In this document: in pieces, positions 1 to 6,565 of the stretch | How positions within the stretch are numbered: the stretch's first letter is position 1 | Layout of the letters: each line of letters opens with the position of its first letter | Assembly (NCBI GenBank): GCA_025839675.1 | Contig: CP104013.1 | Coordinates: forward strand, 780,001 to 812,000 | Length of the DNA: 32,000 nucleotides | Source of the DNA: Candidatus Lokiarchaeum ossiferum | GTDB taxonomy: Archaea > Asgardarchaeota > Lokiarchaeia > Sigyniarchaeales > Promethearchaeaceae | Direction: 5' to 3' | Notes under the pieces: model-generated | Seen by the model: the letters and a program-made list of their open reading frames with translations, nothing else | Databases searched by the model: none | What the model was told of the DNA's origin: nothing | Program-made: the position numbers and the translations under genes

Positions 1-52
1 TGGGGCTTCTGATAGGAATGTCCAATTATTTGCAGAAAAAACCATCCATGAT

Positions 53-1642
53 GTGATGACCAATAAAGAATTAATCTCTAAAATTTTGTCCGAAGAAGTA
101 TCAATAAATCCGGATCAAAGTGTGTTAATTGATGAATTTAATCATATTAAGGTCAAAGAATTGATCGAACGGACTCAAAATGTCTGGCGAAAAATGTTTA
201 TAGCTTGTGATCAACTCCTGTTCAAAGAAGGTAAATCGACTCTCGATGCTAGTAATGAACCTATAAATCAAATAGAATTTGCTAAACAATTCTCCGACTT
301 ATTTGGAGATAAATTAAAATATGATGCAAATATAATCCAGACATTGCTTGATTTAAGTCAGATTGGAAGAAAAACGATAAGTTCCAATCACATGAAAGCC
401 TATCGGGCTGATGAGTTTGTTCTACTTCATAATGAAATGCTTTCTTTTCTGGGAAATGCAAATCCTGATTCTCCGCTAAAACTGACTCGCGACCGATTAG
501 ATTATATTAGACAAAAGGACACTTTTTCGAGTTCCCTTACCATTTTTGAGGCTCTCATGTTGGATCAAATGAATCGCTATCTTGGTAACATGTTTATATC
601 AGAAGGTGCCTTCTATGACTGGATGAGCACAGGTTGGGTGGAGTTAAAAAGTGATTTTAATTATCGGCAATGGAATGCGCGCAGTGCCCCTCTCTTCCTC
701 AACCATTACCAAGAAATGATCTTCTATGATGCTACCAAGGCAAAAACCGCCACCCTGACTCTAACGATCAATGGGCAACCCGTCCCTGTGAAAGTGGAGT
801 GTGATTCCTATTTCGAAAAGAGGTTAGTCGATACTATTGGGGACCTAATGAAGACCTATCCAGCCGCCAATGAACGCTTTTCACGGGTGTTTGGTAGTGA
901 AATTTTCAAGCATTTGCCCCATAACCTTTTGGCGACGGTGCAAAAACAAGTTATTACGCGCGGAGGTATCAGGATGGCACGATATGATCCTGATATAATT
1001 GCTGCTTACACGGGTGAATCAGTTTTCGGAATATTGCAATCCATTGGAACACTTGCGTTTACTACCTCCTCAGAATTGAAAGAGGGAAAAATCTATCTGG
1101 ATTTAGGGCTCGTGTTTGGGGCCGTGGATGAATTTCGGGGAGTAATGATCGAAGCCTTAGGGTATGACGACTATGATCAATATGGGCAGCATTATGGGGA
1201 GAAAAAGGATAACTCGGCTCTGGCCTTGTTGGACGCCCACTTCGCCCAGATCTATGTGGCGCGGGAACAGGCCCGTGATGGCGATCCTGAATCACTCTAT
1301 ACATGGTATCAGAAAAATGCGAAATATATTGGGAAGAATGCGCCATTGCTCACCGAAAGCCAATATAAGCTGTTGATGGAACTCATAATGAAGAATCCGA
1401 ATGTACCCTTTGAAGAGCTGATGTTAAATCTAGCAGATAATTTTGAAGCTTATGGATTTCAGGATATTGAATCTGCCAAAGCATTTCAAAAAATATTTGG
1501 AATTGAAAAAGGTCCTCTTGGATATAAGAGTAATGAAAAAATGGATCCATGGTGGACTAATTATCAGAATTCCAAGCAAGGGATGATAGATGGGAGAATT
1601 AATTTGATTAATTCCCAATTGCATTACTTTTGGAGGAAATAA
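53..1642 (+). CDS. Hypothetical large protein, possibly 5'-truncated by the window edge. Its C-terminal ~170 aa (CT domain) recurs in the orphan copy at 2730..3281.
   Basis: 529-codon ORF. The frame has no stop between nt 2 and the first in-window starts (GTG53/ATG56), so the gene may begin upstream of the window. No catalytic motif recognised. A GC-enriched block at ~640..1385 sits in an otherwise AT-rich gene. A T8 tract follows the stop directly. Confidence 0.8.
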   Translation: MMTNKELISKILSEEVSINPDQSVLIDEFNHIKVKELIERTQNVWRKMFIACDQLLFKEGKSTLDASNEPINQIEFAKQFSDLFGDKLKYDANIIQTLLDLSQIGRKTISSNHMKAYRADEFVLLHNEMLSFLGNANPDSPLKLTRDRLDYIRQKDTFSSSLTIFEALMLDQMNRYLGNMFISEGAFYDWMSTGWVELKSDFNYRQWNARSAPLFLNHYQEMIFYDATKAKTATLTLTINGQPVPVKVECDSYFEKRLVDTIGDLMKTYPAANERFSRVFGSEIFKHLPHNLLATVQKQVITRGGIRMARYDPDIIAAYTGESVFGILQSIGTLAFTTSSELKEGKIYLDLGLVFGAVDEFRGVMIEALGYDDYDQYGQHYGEKKDNSALALLDAHFAQIYVAREQARDGDPESLYTWYQKNAKYIGKNAPLLTESQYKLLMELIMKNPNVPFEELMLNLADNFEAYGFQDIESAKAFQKIFGIEKGPLGYKSNEKMDPWWTNYQNSKQGMIDGRINLINSQLHYFWRK

Positions 1643-1650
1643 TTTTTTTT
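1643..1650 (+). terminator. Oligo-T tract (T8) directly after the stop of the large gene
   Basis: taa + tttttttt. Archaeal RNA polymerase terminates at oligo-T. It is followed by a TATA-like tatatataa ahead of the LRR gene. Confidence 0.35.
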
Positions 1651-1674
1651 GTATATATAACGGAATGAGAAGAC

Positions 1675-2676
1675 ATGAATCAACACAATTTAAAAGGGAT
1701 TTTACCCCCATATAATGAGGTATCAGAAGAAAAACAAAAATTCCTTGTATCTATTAAGGATATTATCTTAGATGCTTGGGAAATTTCAAAAAATGGACAT
1801 CTGATGGTCTATATTGATGAGGAAAAAATCATCAGGCAATTGACAATCGAAATGAAAGAATCATCCAAACAAGCGGAAATTGCCACTTTAATTGATAAAA
1901 TCCCCCATCATTTCAAACATCTTAATAAATTAATCCTAAATGTTGTTGGGATGGAAAAAATTCCCTTATGGCTTTCTGAACTTCACAATCTTCAACTTCT
2001 ATCAATTGGAAATGAATCCTTAGGAAAAATAGATATCGAGATTTTTTCATCGTTTCCTAACTTAAGAAGTTTATATTTAAAGGGAAGTTTCTTTTTTATA
2101 CCAGAAACTATAAAAAATCTAACCGGTTTGAAGATATTAAGTATATCTAGTGTCCCAAATCTAAAATTTTTTCCAGAAGCAATAGGCAAATTAAGTACGT
2201 TAACCAATTTATATCTTTCAAAAATTCAAGTTAGAAATTTGCCTGATTCTATTGGACAACTCGAAAATCTTTCCCAGTTATCTATTCAAGAAGCTACTCT
2301 CAAAAATCTGCCTGAATCTTTTGGATACTTGCAAAATCTCCAAAAACTCACTCTTCATGAAGTTGCTTTAGAAGAACTCCCCGAATCCATTGGAGATTGC
2401 TATCGGCTGAAGGAACTAGATATTAAGGATTGTAACAATCTCACCACCTTACCCAATTCCTTAGGAGATCTGCACAATTTGGAAAGCATTCATATCTATG
2501 GGTGTTTGAATTTGGAATCTATCCCTGATTGCATTGCAAATCTTCCTCAGCTCAAGTATGTTTATTTAATTGAAAATCACAAGTTGGAAATCCCCGTATG
2601 GACGCAAGCTCTTTTACTAAAGAAATTGGAGACTTTCAATGTAGATGGTTGTAAAACCAAGTGGATGAATCCATAA
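1675..2676 (+). CDS. Leucine-rich repeat (LRR) protein, partner 1 (333 aa): ~100-aa non-repeat N-terminal domain plus ~23-aa LRR units
   Basis: Tandem LxxLxLxxCxxLxxLPxSIGxLxxL units, e.g. LPESIGDCYRLKELDIKDCNNLTTLPNSLGDLHNLESIHIYGCLNLESIPDCIANLPQLK. ATG1675 is preceded by tatatataa (1652..1660). Paralog of 3325..4257. Confidence 0.85.
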   Translation: MNQHNLKGILPPYNEVSEEKQKFLVSIKDIILDAWEISKNGHLMVYIDEEKIIRQLTIEMKESSKQAEIATLIDKIPHHFKHLNKLILNVVGMEKIPLWLSELHNLQLLSIGNESLGKIDIEIFSSFPNLRSLYLKGSFFFIPETIKNLTGLKILSISSVPNLKFFPEAIGKLSTLTNLYLSKIQVRNLPDSIGQLENLSQLSIQEATLKNLPESFGYLQNLQKLTLHEVALEELPESIGDCYRLKELDIKDCNNLTTLPNSLGDLHNLESIHIYGCLNLESIPDCIANLPQLKYVYLIENHKLEIPVWTQALLLKKLETFNVDGCKTKWMNP

Positions 2677-2729
2677 ATTTATGTTTTACCTCTTTTTTAA
2701 CCGTTTGTAAAGAAAGGCTAGGATTAAAG

Positions 2730-3281
2730 ATGATAAGTTGCCACTCCATCTCCGATTTTTATAAAAATTTGGTGGATGAATTTCAGGGAATGATGATCGA
2801 AGCCCTCGGGTATGACGACTATGATCAATATGGGCAGCATTATGGGGAGAAAAAGGATAACTCAGCTCTGGCCTTGTTGGACGCCCACTTCGCCCAGATC
2901 TATGTGGCGCGGGAACAGGCCCGTGATGGCGATCCCGAATCACTTTATACGTGGTATCAGAAGAATGCGAAGTATATTGGGAAGAATGCGCCGTTGCTCA
3001 CCGAGACGCAGTATGGGGTGTTAATGGAACTGTTGATGACCAAACCAGGGAAATCTTTTGAGTTAATGATGAAAGATTTAGCGGTAAATTTTGACTTTTA
3101 TGGGTTCAAAGATAGAAATGATGCAATTAAATTCCAAGAATTATTTGGAATTGAAATAGATAGAAACTACCTATTTACTGGTTATGGTGAAATGACCCAA
3201 TGGTGGACTAATTATCGCAATTCTAAGTTTGAAATAATTAATGATAAAATCAATCTTTTCAAATCTGAATTAGATTTCTAA
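2730..3281 (+). CDS. Orphan 5'-truncated paralog of the CT domain of the 53..1642 protein (about 183 aa from ATG2730)
   Basis: Homology to the large protein starts abruptly at VDEF (nt 2772 = nt 1124) and runs to the stop. The 14 residues MISCHSISDFYKNL before it come from unique junction DNA. The track ORF start at GTG2661 overlaps the last codons of the upstream LRR gene and is less plausible than ATG2730. Whether it is expressed is unknown. Confidence 0.6.
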   Translation: MISCHSISDFYKNLVDEFQGMMIEALGYDDYDQYGQHYGEKKDNSALALLDAHFAQIYVAREQARDGDPESLYTWYQKNAKYIGKNAPLLTETQYGVLMELLMTKPGKSFELMMKDLAVNFDFYGFKDRNDAIKFQELFGIEIDRNYLFTGYGEMTQWWTNYRNSKFEIINDKINLFKSELDF

Positions 3282-3291
3282 AGCAAGACAG

Positions 3292-3301
3292 TTTTTTTTT
3301 T
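3292..3301 (+). terminator. Oligo-T tract (T10) after the orphan CT ORF
   Basis: A run of 10 T lies 11 nt after stop 3281 and is positionally homologous to the T8 at 1643..1650. Confidence 0.35.
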
Positions 3302-3324
3302 CTATAACAAAAAATGGTGACATC

Positions 3325-4257
3325 GTGAAAACAGAAGAATTGAAACAAATTACTTTTCCATTTTCAGAAATATCTGAAAATGAAAGAAATTTCCTAATAA
3401 AACTAGATGAAATTATAGAAAAAGCATGGAAAATCAAAAAAAAATCTGGTATGATGATACGAATAAATAATTCAGGAATATTACGAACTTTAGAAATTGA
3501 TGTAGTTGAAAATGTCGATAATGTGAAATTGATTCATCTTATTTATCAAATTCCAACCTTCTTTCCTGATCTTTTTAATTTGGGATTAAATATTTATGGA
3601 TTAAAAACACTTCCCAAGTCGTTTAATATTTTTCGACAACTGAAACAAATTTATTTGGGAAATGAATATTTAGAAGAAATAAATAAGGATTTTTTTTCTA
3701 ATTTCTCTCAATTAAAGAGTTTTGCAATCCGAGGGTTAATGAAATCAATACCGGTGTCGATAGGAAGATTATCAAATCTTGAAAGATTGCAAATCTCGAA
3801 ATCACCCCATCTACATTCATTACCACCTTCAATTGGGAATTTATCTACTCTTTTTAGTATGACAATTAAGGAAGTCTCTTTAAAAAATCTTCCCGAAACG
3901 TTGGGTCATTTGCACAATCTTCAAAAACTCACCCTTCATGATGTTTCCCTTGAAGTTCTTCCCGAATCCTTGGGTGATTGTTATCGATTGAAGGAGTTGG
4001 ATATTCGGAATTGTAATAATCTTACAACCTTGCCTGATTCGATTGGTGATCTCCATAATTTAGAATCCTTAAAAATATATGGCTGTTTGAATTTAGAATC
4101 CATTCCAGATTGTATTACCGACCTCCCACAACTCAAATATGTCTATTTTGTAGAAAATCCCAAACTGGACATCCCTGTGCGGACTCAAGCCCTTTTGCTG
4201 AAAAAATTGGAGACTTTTAATGTGGATGGCTGCAAAACCAAGTGGATGAATCCATAA
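3325..4257 (+). CDS. Leucine-rich repeat (LRR) protein, partner 2 (310 aa)
   Basis: Same architecture as 1675..2676. The first 176 aa align without gaps but are strongly diverged. Exactly one 23-aa LRR unit is missing. The last ~125 aa are near-identical, including the CKTKWMNP tail. GTG3325 is the start, because ATG3314 is in another frame and hits a stop. Confidence 0.85.
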   Translation: MKTEELKQITFPFSEISENERNFLIKLDEIIEKAWKIKKKSGMMIRINNSGILRTLEIDVVENVDNVKLIHLIYQIPTFFPDLFNLGLNIYGLKTLPKSFNIFRQLKQIYLGNEYLEEINKDFFSNFSQLKSFAIRGLMKSIPVSIGRLSNLERLQISKSPHLHSLPPSIGNLSTLFSMTIKEVSLKNLPETLGHLHNLQKLTLHDVSLEVLPESLGDCYRLKELDIRNCNNLTTLPDSIGDLHNLESLKIYGCLNLESIPDCITDLPQLKYVYFVENPKLDIPVRTQALLLKKLETFNVDGCKTKWMNP

Positions 4258-4262
4258 ATTTA

Positions 4263-4269
4263 TTTTTTT
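4263..4269 (+). terminator. Oligo-T tract (T7) after LRR gene 2
   Basis: taaatttatttttttc immediately after stop 4257. Confidence 0.3.
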
Positions 4270-4282
4270 CACTTGAATTTAA

Positions 4283-4341
4283 CTGGGATGAGAAGATCAA
4301 ATATTAGCAAAAATACATGGTCTCACCCCATCTCATCCCAG
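4283..4341. other. Perfect 11-bp inverted repeat (ctgggatgaga / tctcatcccag) with a 37-nt loop, in the convergent intergenic region
   Basis: Arms at 4283..4293 and 4331..4341 are exact reverse complements. It lies between the end of the LRR array and the 3' side of the GTPase gene. Confidence 0.4.
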
Positions 4342-4674: not shown

Positions 4675-5625
4675 TTATATTTCAGTGGTTTTTTGTTTTA
4701 ACACGCGGATAAAGGTAGAAATAGATTCTAATTGCAATTCTTTTTTGTAAATCAATCCAAAATATAATGGTAATTTCGATGAAACTTCATCTAAATAGAA
4801 TCGGGTACTATAGATATTTAAGCCTTCGAATTGAAGGTTTATCACCGGCATGATGTTATACATCTGTTCAAATTTGGTGAAAAACTTGATGAAAAGATCC
4901 CGAATTTCGATCGCATTAAATTTTGGAGATATATGATAACCCAGCCCAAAACCTTCAGGAGTGAAAACAATTGCAGCATCCAAATCATGAGTTTCTGAAA
5001 AAACCCCCAATTGAGAAGATATTTCGTCAAAAATCTGAGGATTGTCAAGCATGCTTTTTGAGAATGCTGTAATGACCCAAACTGGAACATCTTTAGAAGT
5101 TCGATACGCTTGATAGCCAAAACCTTTGCAATTCAAGATTTTATGAGCCTGTTCTTTGAATTGGGACATATTTTTCTCAATTATGTCTTGATTGGGAAAA
5201 TCGGGATCAATCTTGTTATAAAGTATTGTAATATTAGCATCTGGACTAAATTTTTTTACAGCCTCGACAACATTTTTAAAATAAGTAAGACTTTTCTCAA
5301 TCCAATCTGAATTCTGACAATCCACAACATAAAATAATTGAGCAATTTTTTTGAAATAAAGATCGGGGGACTCGAGGTATTTCAATGTGTATCGATCTTG
5401 ACCTCCAAAATCCCAAAGAGCTAATTTATGATGTAAAAATTCAGTTACTGAACGTTCCACCTTTCGTGTTGGAGTGATATTCAGAACTGCATCAAATTGA
5501 CGGAACAGAGTCTTTAAAAGCGATGTTTTTCCCGCTGCCATTAAACCTACTACGGCGATTTTTTTGGGATCATCGGGAATATCTTGTGCCTTCTTTTGGA
5601 TTTCAGTTTTTTTTTTTTCATTCAT
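4675..5625 (-). CDS. Rag/Gtr1-family small GTPase with a C-terminal roadblock/LC7-like domain
   Basis: G1 GLMAAGKTS, G3 LWDFGGQD, G4 NKID. The stretch LALWDFGGQDRY...LFYVVDCQ...KKFSPDANITILYNKID closely parallels eukaryotic RagA (LWDCGGQD...SPDAKIFCLVHKMD, from memory). About 130 aa after the G domain have an alpha/beta pattern typical of roadblock domains (DAAIVFTPEGFGLGYH). Confidence 0.75.
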   Translation of the reverse strand: MNEKKKTEIQKKAQDIPDDPKKIAVVGLMAAGKTSLLKTLFRQFDAVLNITPTRKVERSVTEFLHHKLALWDFGGQDRYTLKYLESPDLYFKKIAQLFYVVDCQNSDWIEKSLTYFKNVVEAVKKFSPDANITILYNKIDPDFPNQDIIEKNMSQFKEQAHKILNCKGFGYQAYRTSKDVPVWVITAFSKSMLDNPQIFDEISSQLGVFSETHDLDAAIVFTPEGFGLGYHISPKFNAIEIRDLFIKFFTKFEQMYNIMPVINLQFEGLNIYSTRFYLDEVSSKLPLYFGLIYKKELQLESISTFIRVLKQKTTEI

Positions 5626-5678
5626 CCTATGTTCATAAGTCTTAGGGCGGGTGAACCTAATAACTCATTGGCGAGACT

Positions 5679-5703
5679 TTTTTATACACGATGTGTATAA
5701 AAA
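5679..5703. promoter_or_regulatory. Perfect 11-3-11 palindrome tttttatacac-gat-gtgtataaaaa in the divergent GTPase/MerR intergenic region
   Basis: The arms at 5679..5689 and 5693..5703 are exact reverse complements. Each arm carries a TTTATA-like TATA element. The left arm lies ~24-31 nt upstream of ATG5711 of the MerR gene. Confidence 0.5.
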
Positions 5704-5710
5704 TATAATA

Positions 5711-6565
5711 ATGGGGGAACAAATCCAGATTAATATCGGAAGATTTTCTAAAATCTGTCAATTGACGCCCAAAGCACTCCGAATTTATGAAAAAAAAGGA
5801 ATTTTAAAACCCAAAATAGTAGATGACTTAACAGGATATCGATATTATTCTAATGATCAGATTCATCGGGGAATAATTCTATCGAAATTAGCATGGGCCA
5901 AGTTTTCATTAAAAGAAATGGAAGAATATTTGGATTTTTATCAAGAAGAAGATTTTCAATCTGCAGAATCAATTTTGAAGAAAAAAATCAATGAATTGGA
6001 AGAACAACAAGCTCAAATCTCATTAGCTAAACGTTTTTTATCCAAGATAGTCGAAAAAGATTATTTCACAATTCAGGATGAACGAATTCAGATTAAAATG
6101 ATCCCTGAATTACGAGTTGTGTCAAAACATGCAATCGGAATATATGGGGACACAATTCCTAGATTGATAGGTGAGATCTATAAATATATTTTCCAGCAAC
6201 CAAATCAAGAACTAATTCGAATCTCGGGACCCACGATTTTTTTGAGCTTTGATGAGGAATTCAAAGAATTTGATGCAGATATTGAAATTGCGATCCCAGT
6301 TACAGGTCCAATTAAATCGTCGGATGAAATAAAGGTCAAAAAATTACAGACAGCAATGATGGCAACAATACTGCATACGGGACCTTATGAGGAGGTAAAT
6401 GAAGCCTATGGAAAAATATTACTTTATATTCAAAAAAAGAAATGGAAAATAGTTGGGCCAAGTCGCGAAGTATATTTAAATAGTCCTCAAACGGCTTCAC
6501 CGGAAGAATTATTGACGGAAATTCAATTTCCAGTTGAAATAAACCCAAAGGAACAAAAAAAATAG
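5711..6565 (+). CDS. MerR-family transcriptional regulator with a GyrI-like/effector-binding C-terminal domain
   Basis: N-terminal INIGRFSKICQLTPKALRIYEKKGILKP...GYRYYSNDQI is the MerR HTH signature. It is followed by a coiled-coil linker and a ~150-aa C-terminal domain resembling BmrR/GyrI-like ligand-binding modules. ATG5711 is preferred over the track start GTG5651. Confidence 0.75.
   Translation: MGEQIQINIGRFSKICQLTPKALRIYEKKGILKPKIVDDLTGYRYYSNDQIHRGIILSKLAWAKFSLKEMEEYLDFYQEEDFQSAESILKKKINELEEQQAQISLAKRFLSKIVEKDYFTIQDERIQIKMIPELRVVSKHAIGIYGDTIPRLIGEIYKYIFQQPNQELIRISGPTIFLSFDEEFKEFDADIEIAIPVTGPIKSSDEIKVKKLQTAMMATILHTGPYEEVNEAYGKILLYIQKKKWKIVGPSREVYLNSPQTASPEELLTEIQFPVEINPKEQKK

Follow-up and report, generated by a model that had tools for sequence, protein, structure and literature searches.

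A candidate effector and leucine-rich repeat partner locus with exchangeable cassettes in Candidatus Lokiarchaeum ossiferum

Known cassette systems and the Lokiarchaeum locus

Polymorphic toxin systems such as CdiA-CT/CdiI, Rhs-CT/RhsI, and MafB/MafI (PMC3482391) comprise a huge protein whose C-terminus is variable after a conserved junction, a small cytoplasmic partner encoded directly downstream, arrays of promoterless-looking C-terminal fragments that each carry a partner gene and homology to the main gene, and displaced former 3′ ends of differing lengths. Leucine-rich repeat (LRR) proteins are a recognized immunity class of these systems, designated Imm-LRR (Zhang et al., 2012, PMC3482391). 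These features are shared by the locus analyzed here, which lies near the left edge of a 32,000-nt stretch of the Candidatus Lokiarchaeum ossiferum genome (contig CP104013.1, positions 780,001 to 812,000), hereafter the window. In this order, the window contains a long open reading frame (ORF) ending at 1642, a 333-aa LRR gene, a repeat of the last ~170 codons of the ORF, and a 310-aa LRR gene. The ORF is the 3′ end of a giant gene and is collinear, at 86–100% nucleotide (nt) identity, with the last part of a gene predicted to encode 10,073 amino acids (aa) on the related contig L001 (ENA contig ERZ26802894 NODE_47).

All positions refer to the window unless a contig is named, and the features are listed in Table 1. 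Unit 1 (1124–2686) and unit 2 (2772–4267) each consist of a conserved left arm, a variable tip with which the C-terminal domain ends, a short intergenic spacer, and an LRR gene made of a variable N-terminal part and a conserved C-terminal part, the right arm. We consider it somewhat probable that the locus as a whole is a polymorphic-toxin-like system of effector and LRR partner with recombination-driven cassette switching. The cassette architecture and the exchange through the arms are likely, and a toxin/immunity function, as read from the sequences, is proposed tentatively, at slightly less than even chances.

Orphan cassettes homologous to the main gene were found at 2772–4257 in the window, as modules B, C, and D together with an 879-aa long orphan in L001, and as an array in L029, a JGI contig from a second Asgard lineage. 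The locus departs from the polymorphic toxin systems in several respects. Those systems swap unrelated toxin folds, whereas the Lokiarchaeum tips all belong to one homologous family; the junction falls within one folded domain; the gene of the partner is split, with its conserved part forming a second homology arm; and the system belongs to an Asgard archaeon. The locus revealed no known toxin, no pretoxin motif (VENN, PxxxxDPxGL), and neither a processing protease nor a secretion domain. Contact-dependent inhibition by CdiB/CdiA/CdiI, which is characterized by VENN or another pretoxin motif, FHA repeats, and a CdiB transporter, was not matched either: the last 2,299 aa of the giant protein, like its relatives, contain no Pfam family, and the junction motif APLLT(E) is located in a folded domain.

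Two further groups of systems resemble the locus in part. Colicin E-type DNase/Im pairs share the proposed “dual recognition,” in which a conserved patch provides affinity and a variable patch provides specificity, and one toxin family and one immunity family diversify together, similar to the logic proposed here for arm, tip, and repeats. However, Im proteins are small four-helix bundles without orphan arrays, while the Lokiarchaeum partner is an LRR solenoid, and the binding and toxicity proven for colicins are wholly inferred for the present pair. The silent-cassette systems (yeast MAT/HML/HMR, Neisseria pilE/pilS, and Borrelia vlsE) likewise have a variable segment between conserved DNA, spare copies near one expression site, and flanks evolving in concert. 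They vary one protein, whereas the Lokiarchaeum cassette spans two genes; the locus shows no dedicated nuclease or recombination enhancer, and its orphans keep an in-frame ATG and may be expressed.

Among archaea, the VARTIG modules of Thermococcales (Makarova et al., 2021, PMC8416519) also combine a large first gene with a recombination-driven hypervariable C-terminus and variable downstream genes, in a polymorphic-toxin-like organization without an identifiable toxin. Unlike the present locus, they use Ig domains and membrane-protein partners, with no LRR partner and no shared domain family, and their recombination appears to take place between strains, not with local orphan arrays (PMC8416519).

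Conserved arms and a variable block

The original prediction, made from the window alone, had described one hypervariable block that crosses a gene boundary between two conserved arms. In a global alignment of unit 1 with unit 2, the left arms were identical at 219 of 231 nt (94.8%; 97% aa), and the 12 mismatches counted by hand were thus exact. Directly downstream, the identity dropped to 61% nt and 46% aa in the tip, which agreed with the expected fall to about half at the protein level after APLLTE, and to 62% nt in the intergenic spacer. The LRR N-terminal part was indeed the most diverged (46% nt, 35% aa, estimated at ~30–35% without gaps over aa 1–176), being gapless to ~aa 177 and then interrupted by a single 23-aa gap equal to one LRR unit. 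In the LRR C-terminal part, the identity rose again to 77% nt and 83% aa, so that the return of conservation stood but the estimate of 85–90% was too high. The variable block had an overall identity of 51%.

A maximum-likelihood two-breakpoint fit placed the breaks at 1355/3003 and 2297/3878, near the proposed positions of ~1355 and ~2299, with a log-likelihood ratio of 112 compared with a maximum of 10.2 in 30 column shuffles. Therefore, the boundaries are sharp, far beyond chance, and the non-uniform profile excludes uniform post-duplication drift, as had been claimed. The variable DNA is one block across the gene boundary; the description of conserved DNA on both sides was overstated for this pair, whose right arms are only 77% identical at the nt level and saturated at silent sites.

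The substitution rates separated the two arms clearly. Synonymous divergence (dS) was 0.20 in the left arm, with a ratio of nonsynonymous to synonymous divergence (dN/dS) of 0.095. The dS values of the tip (1.6) and of the LRR N-terminal part (1.3) were saturated, which makes their dN/dS ratios of 0.26 and 0.50 rough, while the right arm had a saturated dS of ~2.5 and a dN/dS of 0.04. Synonymous differences affected 8.5 of 47.5 sites in the left arm versus 58 of 80 in the right arm (Fisher p = 1e-9), and exact identity in the right arm was confined to the final ~30 nt (2653–2683, spanning the stop codon). The left arm is young or homogenized DNA. Since its silent sites are saturated at a dN/dS of 0.04, the right arm of the window pair matches the variable block in age and is kept constant by protein-level purifying selection alone.

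A different picture of the right arm emerged from comparisons across modules. Six left arms from two genomes were 88–98% identical at the nt level (dS 0.09–0.33), with dS values of 0.9–2.0 between the tips. The right arms fell into two types, each common at 91–97% nt (dS 0.11–0.25) to cassettes with saturated variable parts. Type I, found in window LRR1, LRR_B, and LRR_C, was conserved at 95.5–97% nt (dS 0.11–0.15), although the N-terminal parts of LRR_B and LRR1 were saturated (dS 1.5); window LRR1 compared with LRR_B and LRR_C gave 95.5–96.5% nt (dS 0.12–0.15). Type II, found in window LRR2 and LRR_A, was conserved at 91% nt (dS 0.25), although the N-terminal parts were only 20% identical at the aa level. 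Between the types, the identity was 76–78% nt with saturated dS, and the window holds one copy of each. Because near-identical arms are attached to cassettes with saturated variable parts, the right arm is, to judge from these alignments, exchanged or homogenized at the DNA level within a type. In other pairs, the breakpoints were at 1430/2313 and 3039/3918, so the right boundary is nearly fixed and the left one moves up to ~75 nt into the tip.

The related contig L001 carries a longer array, consisting of the 10,073-aa giant gene ending in the C-terminal domain, LRR_A, orphan B with LRR_B, orphan C with LRR_C, the truncated orphan D, and the 879-aa long orphan. Cassette 1 directly continues the giant gene in the window, whereas L001 has it as an orphan in third place: it differs from orphan C and LRR_C at 6 positions in 1,022 nt (1304–2325; 99.4%), with flanks of only ~90% (855–1303) and ~95% identity (2326–2800; difference density, Fisher p = 2e-4). 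Tip 1 and orphan tip C were 98.9% identical, with 0 synonymous and 3 nonsynonymous differences. In the comparison of window cassette 1 with orphan C and LRR_C, the only unsaturated one of the variable block, nonsynonymous and synonymous differences stood at 5:1 in the block versus 4:15 in the arms (Fisher p = 0.012). Selection on the cassette, whether relaxed or diversifying, would give this ratio, and so would silent differences imported into the arms by conversion.

The orphans also differ in the length of their upstream homology (~170, ~260, and ~880 codons), which indicates repeated displacement of older 3′ ends. Orphan C in L001 has kept ~290 nt of extra upstream homology, now with a TGA, and this decayed sequence fits a displaced former 3′ end. 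The nonsense codon (L001 9917–9919) corresponds to GGA at 1026–1028 in the giant gene of the window, and the part encoding the C-terminal domain is intact. At its start, the 879-aa ORF (L001 12004–14643), which comes after the truncated orphan D, resembles a part of the giant protein located ~900 aa from the C-terminus, and it closes with a diverged version of the domain (GFELLG...YGPLKD...IGERAPHL...FQNRFGL...FWTNYATSG); apparently, a paralogous giant gene was the source of this far longer displaced 3′ end. Spacer and arm of orphan D match the segment 2687–2990 collinearly (92–99%), and similarity collapses right after APLLTE. The type 1 spacer is kept at three orphan junctions (the window, L001 7952–8046, and L001 11566–11660), and the gene caller starts the L001 orphan proteins P0021 and P0022 at the ATG matching window 2730. 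The ~80 nt after the LRR2 stop codon align with L001 9674–9750, a second type of spacer that enters the extended arm of orphan C (“MHVVTPYPAAN...”), after which similarity is lost; this segment looks like the relic of a further cassette junction at the end of the array.

The same pattern recurs in the second lineage. L029 contains three modules of C-terminal domain and LRR gene, followed by a terminal arm-only relic ending at APL, with identities of 97–100% in the arms, 33–63% in the variable block, and 80–97% in the LRR C-terminal part. Here, conservation runs without a break from the LRR C-terminal part through the spacer into the next arm, and an alternation of conserved and variable blocks describes the array best. 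Base composition follows these blocks. The GC content at third codon positions (GC3) in the window was 0.55 in left arm 1, 0.61 in left arm 2, 0.38 in the LRR C-terminal part, 0.33 in the tips, and 0.19–0.24 in the LRR N-terminal part, with 0.24–0.31 in background genes. In L029, the GC content was 56–58% in the arms, 62–64% in the LRR C-terminal part, 36–43% in the tips, and 34–36% in the LRR N-terminal part, with 44% for the whole contig. GC-rich conserved blocks are the pattern expected under GC-biased or frequent gene conversion, which may have shaped them. The giant gene itself is far above the genome in GC content (600–1380 and 2800–3000; L001 1–6600), with 41–50% versus ~33% and a GC3 of 0.44–0.56 versus ~0.28; the GC content falls sharply at the boundary of arm and tip, and an AT-rich exception extends from 1 to ~600 (L001 ~5401–6000).

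Cassette exchange through the arms, as originally proposed, is thus supported by the relocated cassette, the homogenized left arms, the two right-arm types, the alternation in L029, and the GC-rich arms. The proposed double crossover was not supported for the two window copies, as their right arms differ in type and, at 77% nt identity with saturated silent sites, are a poor substrate. A single crossover in the left arms would suffice to switch tips in the window.

Table 1. Features of the array in the 32,000-nt window of Candidatus Lokiarchaeum ossiferum
Feature	Position	Strand	Description
Giant gene, 3′ end	2..1642	+	last 546 codons and stop; frame open from base 2; exits the left edge of the window
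C-terminal domain, ~192 aa	1064..1642	+	undescribed family
Left arm, copy 1	1124..1354	+	N-terminal alpha/beta half of the C-terminal domain, up to ...APLLT
Variable tip 1	1355..1642	+	helical C-terminal half of the C-terminal domain
Intergenic spacer within the variable block	1643..1674		T8 tract, then TATATATAA, ~16 nt ahead of the LRR1 start codon
LRR protein 1, variable part	1675..2298	+	non-LRR N-terminal cap (~aa 1–81), LRR units 1–5, first strand of unit 6
LRR protein 1, conserved part (right arm type I)	2299..2676	+	units 6b–10 and C-cap
Inter-module spacer, type 1	2677..2771	+	in-frame ATG at 2730 (MISCHSISDFYKNL-VDEF...)
Left arm, copy 2 (start of orphan C-terminal domain)	2772..3002	+	without the first ~20 residues of the domain
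Variable tip 2 (orphan)	3003..3281	+	41–49% aa identity to all other tips
Intergenic spacer, copy 2	3282–3324		T11 tract, then CTATAACAAAAAA
LRR protein 2, variable part	3325..3879	+	one LRR unit fewer than LRR1
LRR protein 2, conserved part (right arm type II)	3880..4257	+	
Putative type 2 spacer relic and first ~20 nt of a longer arm	4258..4335		right end of the array

No copies beyond the two units were found when the window was searched against itself with tblastn and blastn. The orphan product starting with MMIEALG... corresponds to P0001, annotated as a hypothetical protein of Ca. L. ossiferum, and the whole of LRR protein 2 corresponds to P0025 (NEF87_000633 of Ca. L. ossiferum). The window contains no tRNA genes, and site-specific integration, for which they would be a hallmark, was consequently dropped as an explanation of the locus. 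Each arm copy holds the same pair of 70–94-aa ORFs in other frames (1062–1346, − strand, and 1164–1376, + strand; 2686–2943, − strand, and 2812–3024, + strand), which are most likely by-products of the GC-rich arm sequence and not genes. Adjoining the array on the opposite strand (4675–5625, −) is a gene whose product of 316 aa carries a small-GTPase-like domain at its N-terminus (TIGR00231, E 5.7e-7, below cut-off); proteins of this kind are common in Asgard archaea.

The C-terminal domain, its LRR partner, and a proposed mechanism

An exhaustive HMMER search of 1.84 billion representatives yielded 18 true relatives of the 546-aa piece, and the named ones are from Promethearchaeota metagenome-assembled genomes. 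Arm and tip together form one domain, since all 18 relatives matched only query aa ~351–542, the last ~190 residues. The domain occupies the extreme C-terminus of proteins 832 to 10,073 aa long and is marked by the motifs ExLG, YGxKKD, IGxxAPLL(T/S), AFG(I/L), and WWxN(Y/F)xNS. The six tips align with the distant relatives as a single family in which AFG(I/L) and WWxNYxNS are retained. AlphaFold2 modeled the domain with a predicted local distance difference test (pLDDT) score of 85 and a predicted template modeling (pTM) score of 0.82; the model of the full 546-aa piece was confident in this domain only, with pLDDT <50 upstream. Conservation of D...ExL...K(D/E) and the beta-beta-beta-alpha-beta order of the model may be a loose hint at a nuclease-like core. 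A PD-(D/E)xK nuclease core (D13, E30-x-L, K48; strand-strand-strand-helix-strand) was considered and not adopted because neither a sequence nor a fold match was found.

Other searches gave no additional homologs. The 546 codons at the end of the giant gene matched no Pfam, PADLOC, or NCBIfam family, a word-index homolog search with the 546-aa piece returned no match, and a protein scan of the genome contigs returned chance matches only. Scanning the genome contigs with the degenerate pattern IGxxAPLLTExQ produced 22 matches versus an estimated ~26 by chance, all in unrelated bacteria or methanogens, and the pattern QHYGEKKDN had two chance matches only in the metagenomes; a scan of viral contigs found none. 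Upstream of the arms, the giant gene of the window and that of L001 (1–1123 versus 5256–6378) show a mosaic of identity, with 86–90% at 1–300, 100% at 451–650, and 88–93% at 850–1000, which suggests recombination tracts well ahead of the cassette arms.

The partner proteins were assigned to the LRR class by Pfam matches to LRR_14 (7e-27 for LRR1 and 9e-19) and LRR_8 (2e-14). They fit the description of Imm-LRR proteins in being small, lacking an export signal, and adjoining the C-terminal domain. As no signal peptide, transmembrane segment, or hydrophobic segment was found in them, they are probably cytoplasmic. An LRR gene directly follows the C-terminal domain at 7 of the 10 loci with usable context (the window, L001, L029, L026, L027/L028, L030, and L035) and in every complete module. 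Concave LRR positions were only slightly less identical than core positions in a position-class analysis, so diversification focused on the concave face was not adopted. Ahead of each LRR gene lies a T tract (T8 or T11) followed, 15–25 nt upstream of the start codon, by a TATA-like box (TATATATAA and CTATAACAAAAAA, respectively); this would fit an archaeal termination of the giant-gene transcript followed by a separate promoter and a short-leader or leaderless LRR mRNA. In the sub-branch of P0005 and P0009, which has APLIT/APLLD variants and a long insertion, the downstream gene (L034 3795–4520 and L033 3520–5175) is not an LRR gene; one product has sub-threshold ankyrin-repeat matches (E 7e-4 to 9e-3, below the Pfam cut-offs) and the other is a multi-pass membrane protein.

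We propose the following mechanism. A giant protein, ~10,000 aa long in the closest relative, ends in the ~190-aa domain, the first half of which is encoded by the conserved, GC-rich left arm. The hypervariable cassette comprises the tip, the short intergenic region, and the LRR cap with the first five to six repeats, while the last four to five LRR units make up the conserved right arm, and each orphan module downstream is built from a spacer, an arm, a tip, and an LRR gene, in this order. Cassettes would move between the orphan positions and the expressed gene by homologous recombination or by gene conversion within the conserved blocks, and incoming cassettes would push out older 3′ ends, which become orphans. 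The simplest switch would be a crossover between two left arms that deletes the intervening module, 1,648 bp in the window, and joins the giant gene to tip 2, leaving LRR2 as the adjacent downstream gene. The LRR protein would bind the C-terminal domain of the same cell, neutralizing or guarding it, with the conserved repeats docking on the conserved half of the domain and the variable cap and repeats reading the variable tip, such that each tip pairs only with its own partner. The mosaic, the homogenized arms, the relocated cassette, the recurrence in other lineages, and the linkage of the two genes were seen directly in the sequences; binding, toxicity and immunity, delivery to other cells, and both the direction and the frequency of switching are what we infer from them.

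Competing explanations and biological meaning

Several observations weigh against a toxin-like system with cassette switching. The dN/dS ratio was strongly non-uniform across the segments (0.10, 0.26, 0.50, and 0.04), yet it was <1 in all of them. The ratio of 0.04 in the LRR C-terminal part, obtained even between the arm types, reflects very strong purifying selection and suggests a conserved job beyond simple neutralization. The tips are homologous variants of one domain (40–70% aa) and not unrelated toxin folds, and the invariant residues of the domain are mostly hydrophobic (I, P, L, F, G, W). The domain sequence had no match in Pfam, NCBIfam, PHROGs, PADLOC, or the PDB, and Foldseek searches with its model found no PDB or BFVD match (nothing below E 0.2). 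The N-terminus of the giant protein lies beyond both the window and L001, and no N-terminal hydrophobic segment was found in the 2,296-aa relative P0011. The only topology signal was an internal hydrophobic stretch of ~50–64 aa, which precedes the C-terminus by ~1,290 aa and is followed by basic residues; it is placed so that the C-terminal domain could be cytoplasmic. Three of the 10 loci lack an LRR partner: one has no nearby gene, one has a membrane protein next, and one has a protein with sub-threshold ankyrin-like matches. The L029 array has no adjacent giant gene, and orphans with a conserved in-frame ATG may be expressed and not silent. The pairwise identities of the tips and of the LRR N-terminal parts were not correlated (Spearman −0.37, p 0.47), in an underpowered comparison of only four cassettes. 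Finally, close relatives come from two genomes only, and switching is deduced from a single comparison.

A non-toxic lock-and-key or identity module, though improbable, is a serious rival because the tips form one family and no catalytic signature is evident. The LRR protein would then be a cytoplasmic adaptor on the tail of a giant membrane protein, and an exchange would change identity, not toxicity; the conserved repeats would link to a conserved cellular partner, while the variable tip and repeats would provide orthogonal pairing of paralogous giants or kin recognition, as in Proteus IdsD/IdsE. The domain has no catalytic-looking invariant residues and no toxin match, the strongly constrained LRR C-terminal part suggests a second, conserved interaction, the hydrophobic stretch with its basic residues is compatible with a cytoplasmic tail, and the LRR proteins lack export signals, all of which suit such an adaptor. 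However, conflict systems are recognized by just such orphan arrays, complete with homology arms and displaced 3′ ends, and a housekeeping adaptor pair would need neither silent or spare cassettes nor such divergence. Stand-alone genes for the C-terminal domain also occur without a neighboring giant gene, and no conserved third partner was found beside the locus across the lineages compared.

A broader reading, which we hold to be rather unlikely, is an Asgard two-gene identity or conflict cassette, with an undescribed effector domain that closes ~10,000-aa proteins, an LRR partner that reads this domain in the manner of a modular receptor, and spare cassettes installed by gene conversion via two arms. 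If it were true, half of the LRR solenoid would be a swappable specificity module and the other half a fixed docking or signaling module, and an archaeal system would join the logic of polymorphic toxins, mating-type cassettes, and LRR recognition of the ribonuclease-inhibitor or NLR-like kind.

Surface variation is a markedly weaker candidate. Here, an exposed tip would be switched to evade viruses or predators, as with pilE/pilS or vlsE, and the LRR protein would be a tip-specific folding or export chaperone. The conserved-variable-conserved layout with spare downstream copies is that of gene-conversion variation, and the tips keep one fold while their surfaces vary. Nevertheless, exposure of the tip has no support in the data, hypervariability of half of the repeats with a precisely linked boundary would be superfluous in a chaperone, and a partner gene in every cassette is typical of immunity genes and not of antigenic variation donors. 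Plain tandem duplication with uneven divergence, in which a tip and LRR N-terminal part that evolve fast under relaxed or diversifying selection lie between arms under purifying selection without any cassette exchange, agrees with the saturated right arm of the window at a dN/dS of 0.04, the ratios below 1 throughout, and the non-congruent identities of tips and LRR N-terminal parts (four cassettes), but it is very unlikely and already largely contradicted by the left-arm dS of 0.20 versus 1.3–2.5 elsewhere in the same units (Fisher p = 1e-9), the two right-arm types that are each common at the DNA level to unrelated cassettes, the one cassette found at different array positions in two genomes with arms more diverged than its core, the arm-specific GC enrichment in two lineages, and the arrays that end at arm boundaries.

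To our knowledge, archaeal systems of conflict between cells and of self-recognition have hardly been studied. Asgard archaea are the archaeal group closest to eukaryotes, and LRR proteins are abundant in this lineage close to the origin of eukaryotes. A description of such a system in Asgard archaea, or of the domain family, was not found in the literature searched, the 2019 mBio survey of archaeal polymorphic toxins (Makarova et al.) lying outside it. As Ca. L. ossiferum is one of the few cultured Asgard archaea, the locus is directly testable. If the effector/LRR-partner reading is true, the locus would represent a new effector family and a new organization of specificity, in which the partner gene is split into swappable and fixed halves. 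It would likewise be a concrete example of arm-mediated cassette switching in a lineage near the origin of eukaryotes, and its protein/LRR pairs, a defined set with natural diversity, suit studies on the evolution of recognition specificity.

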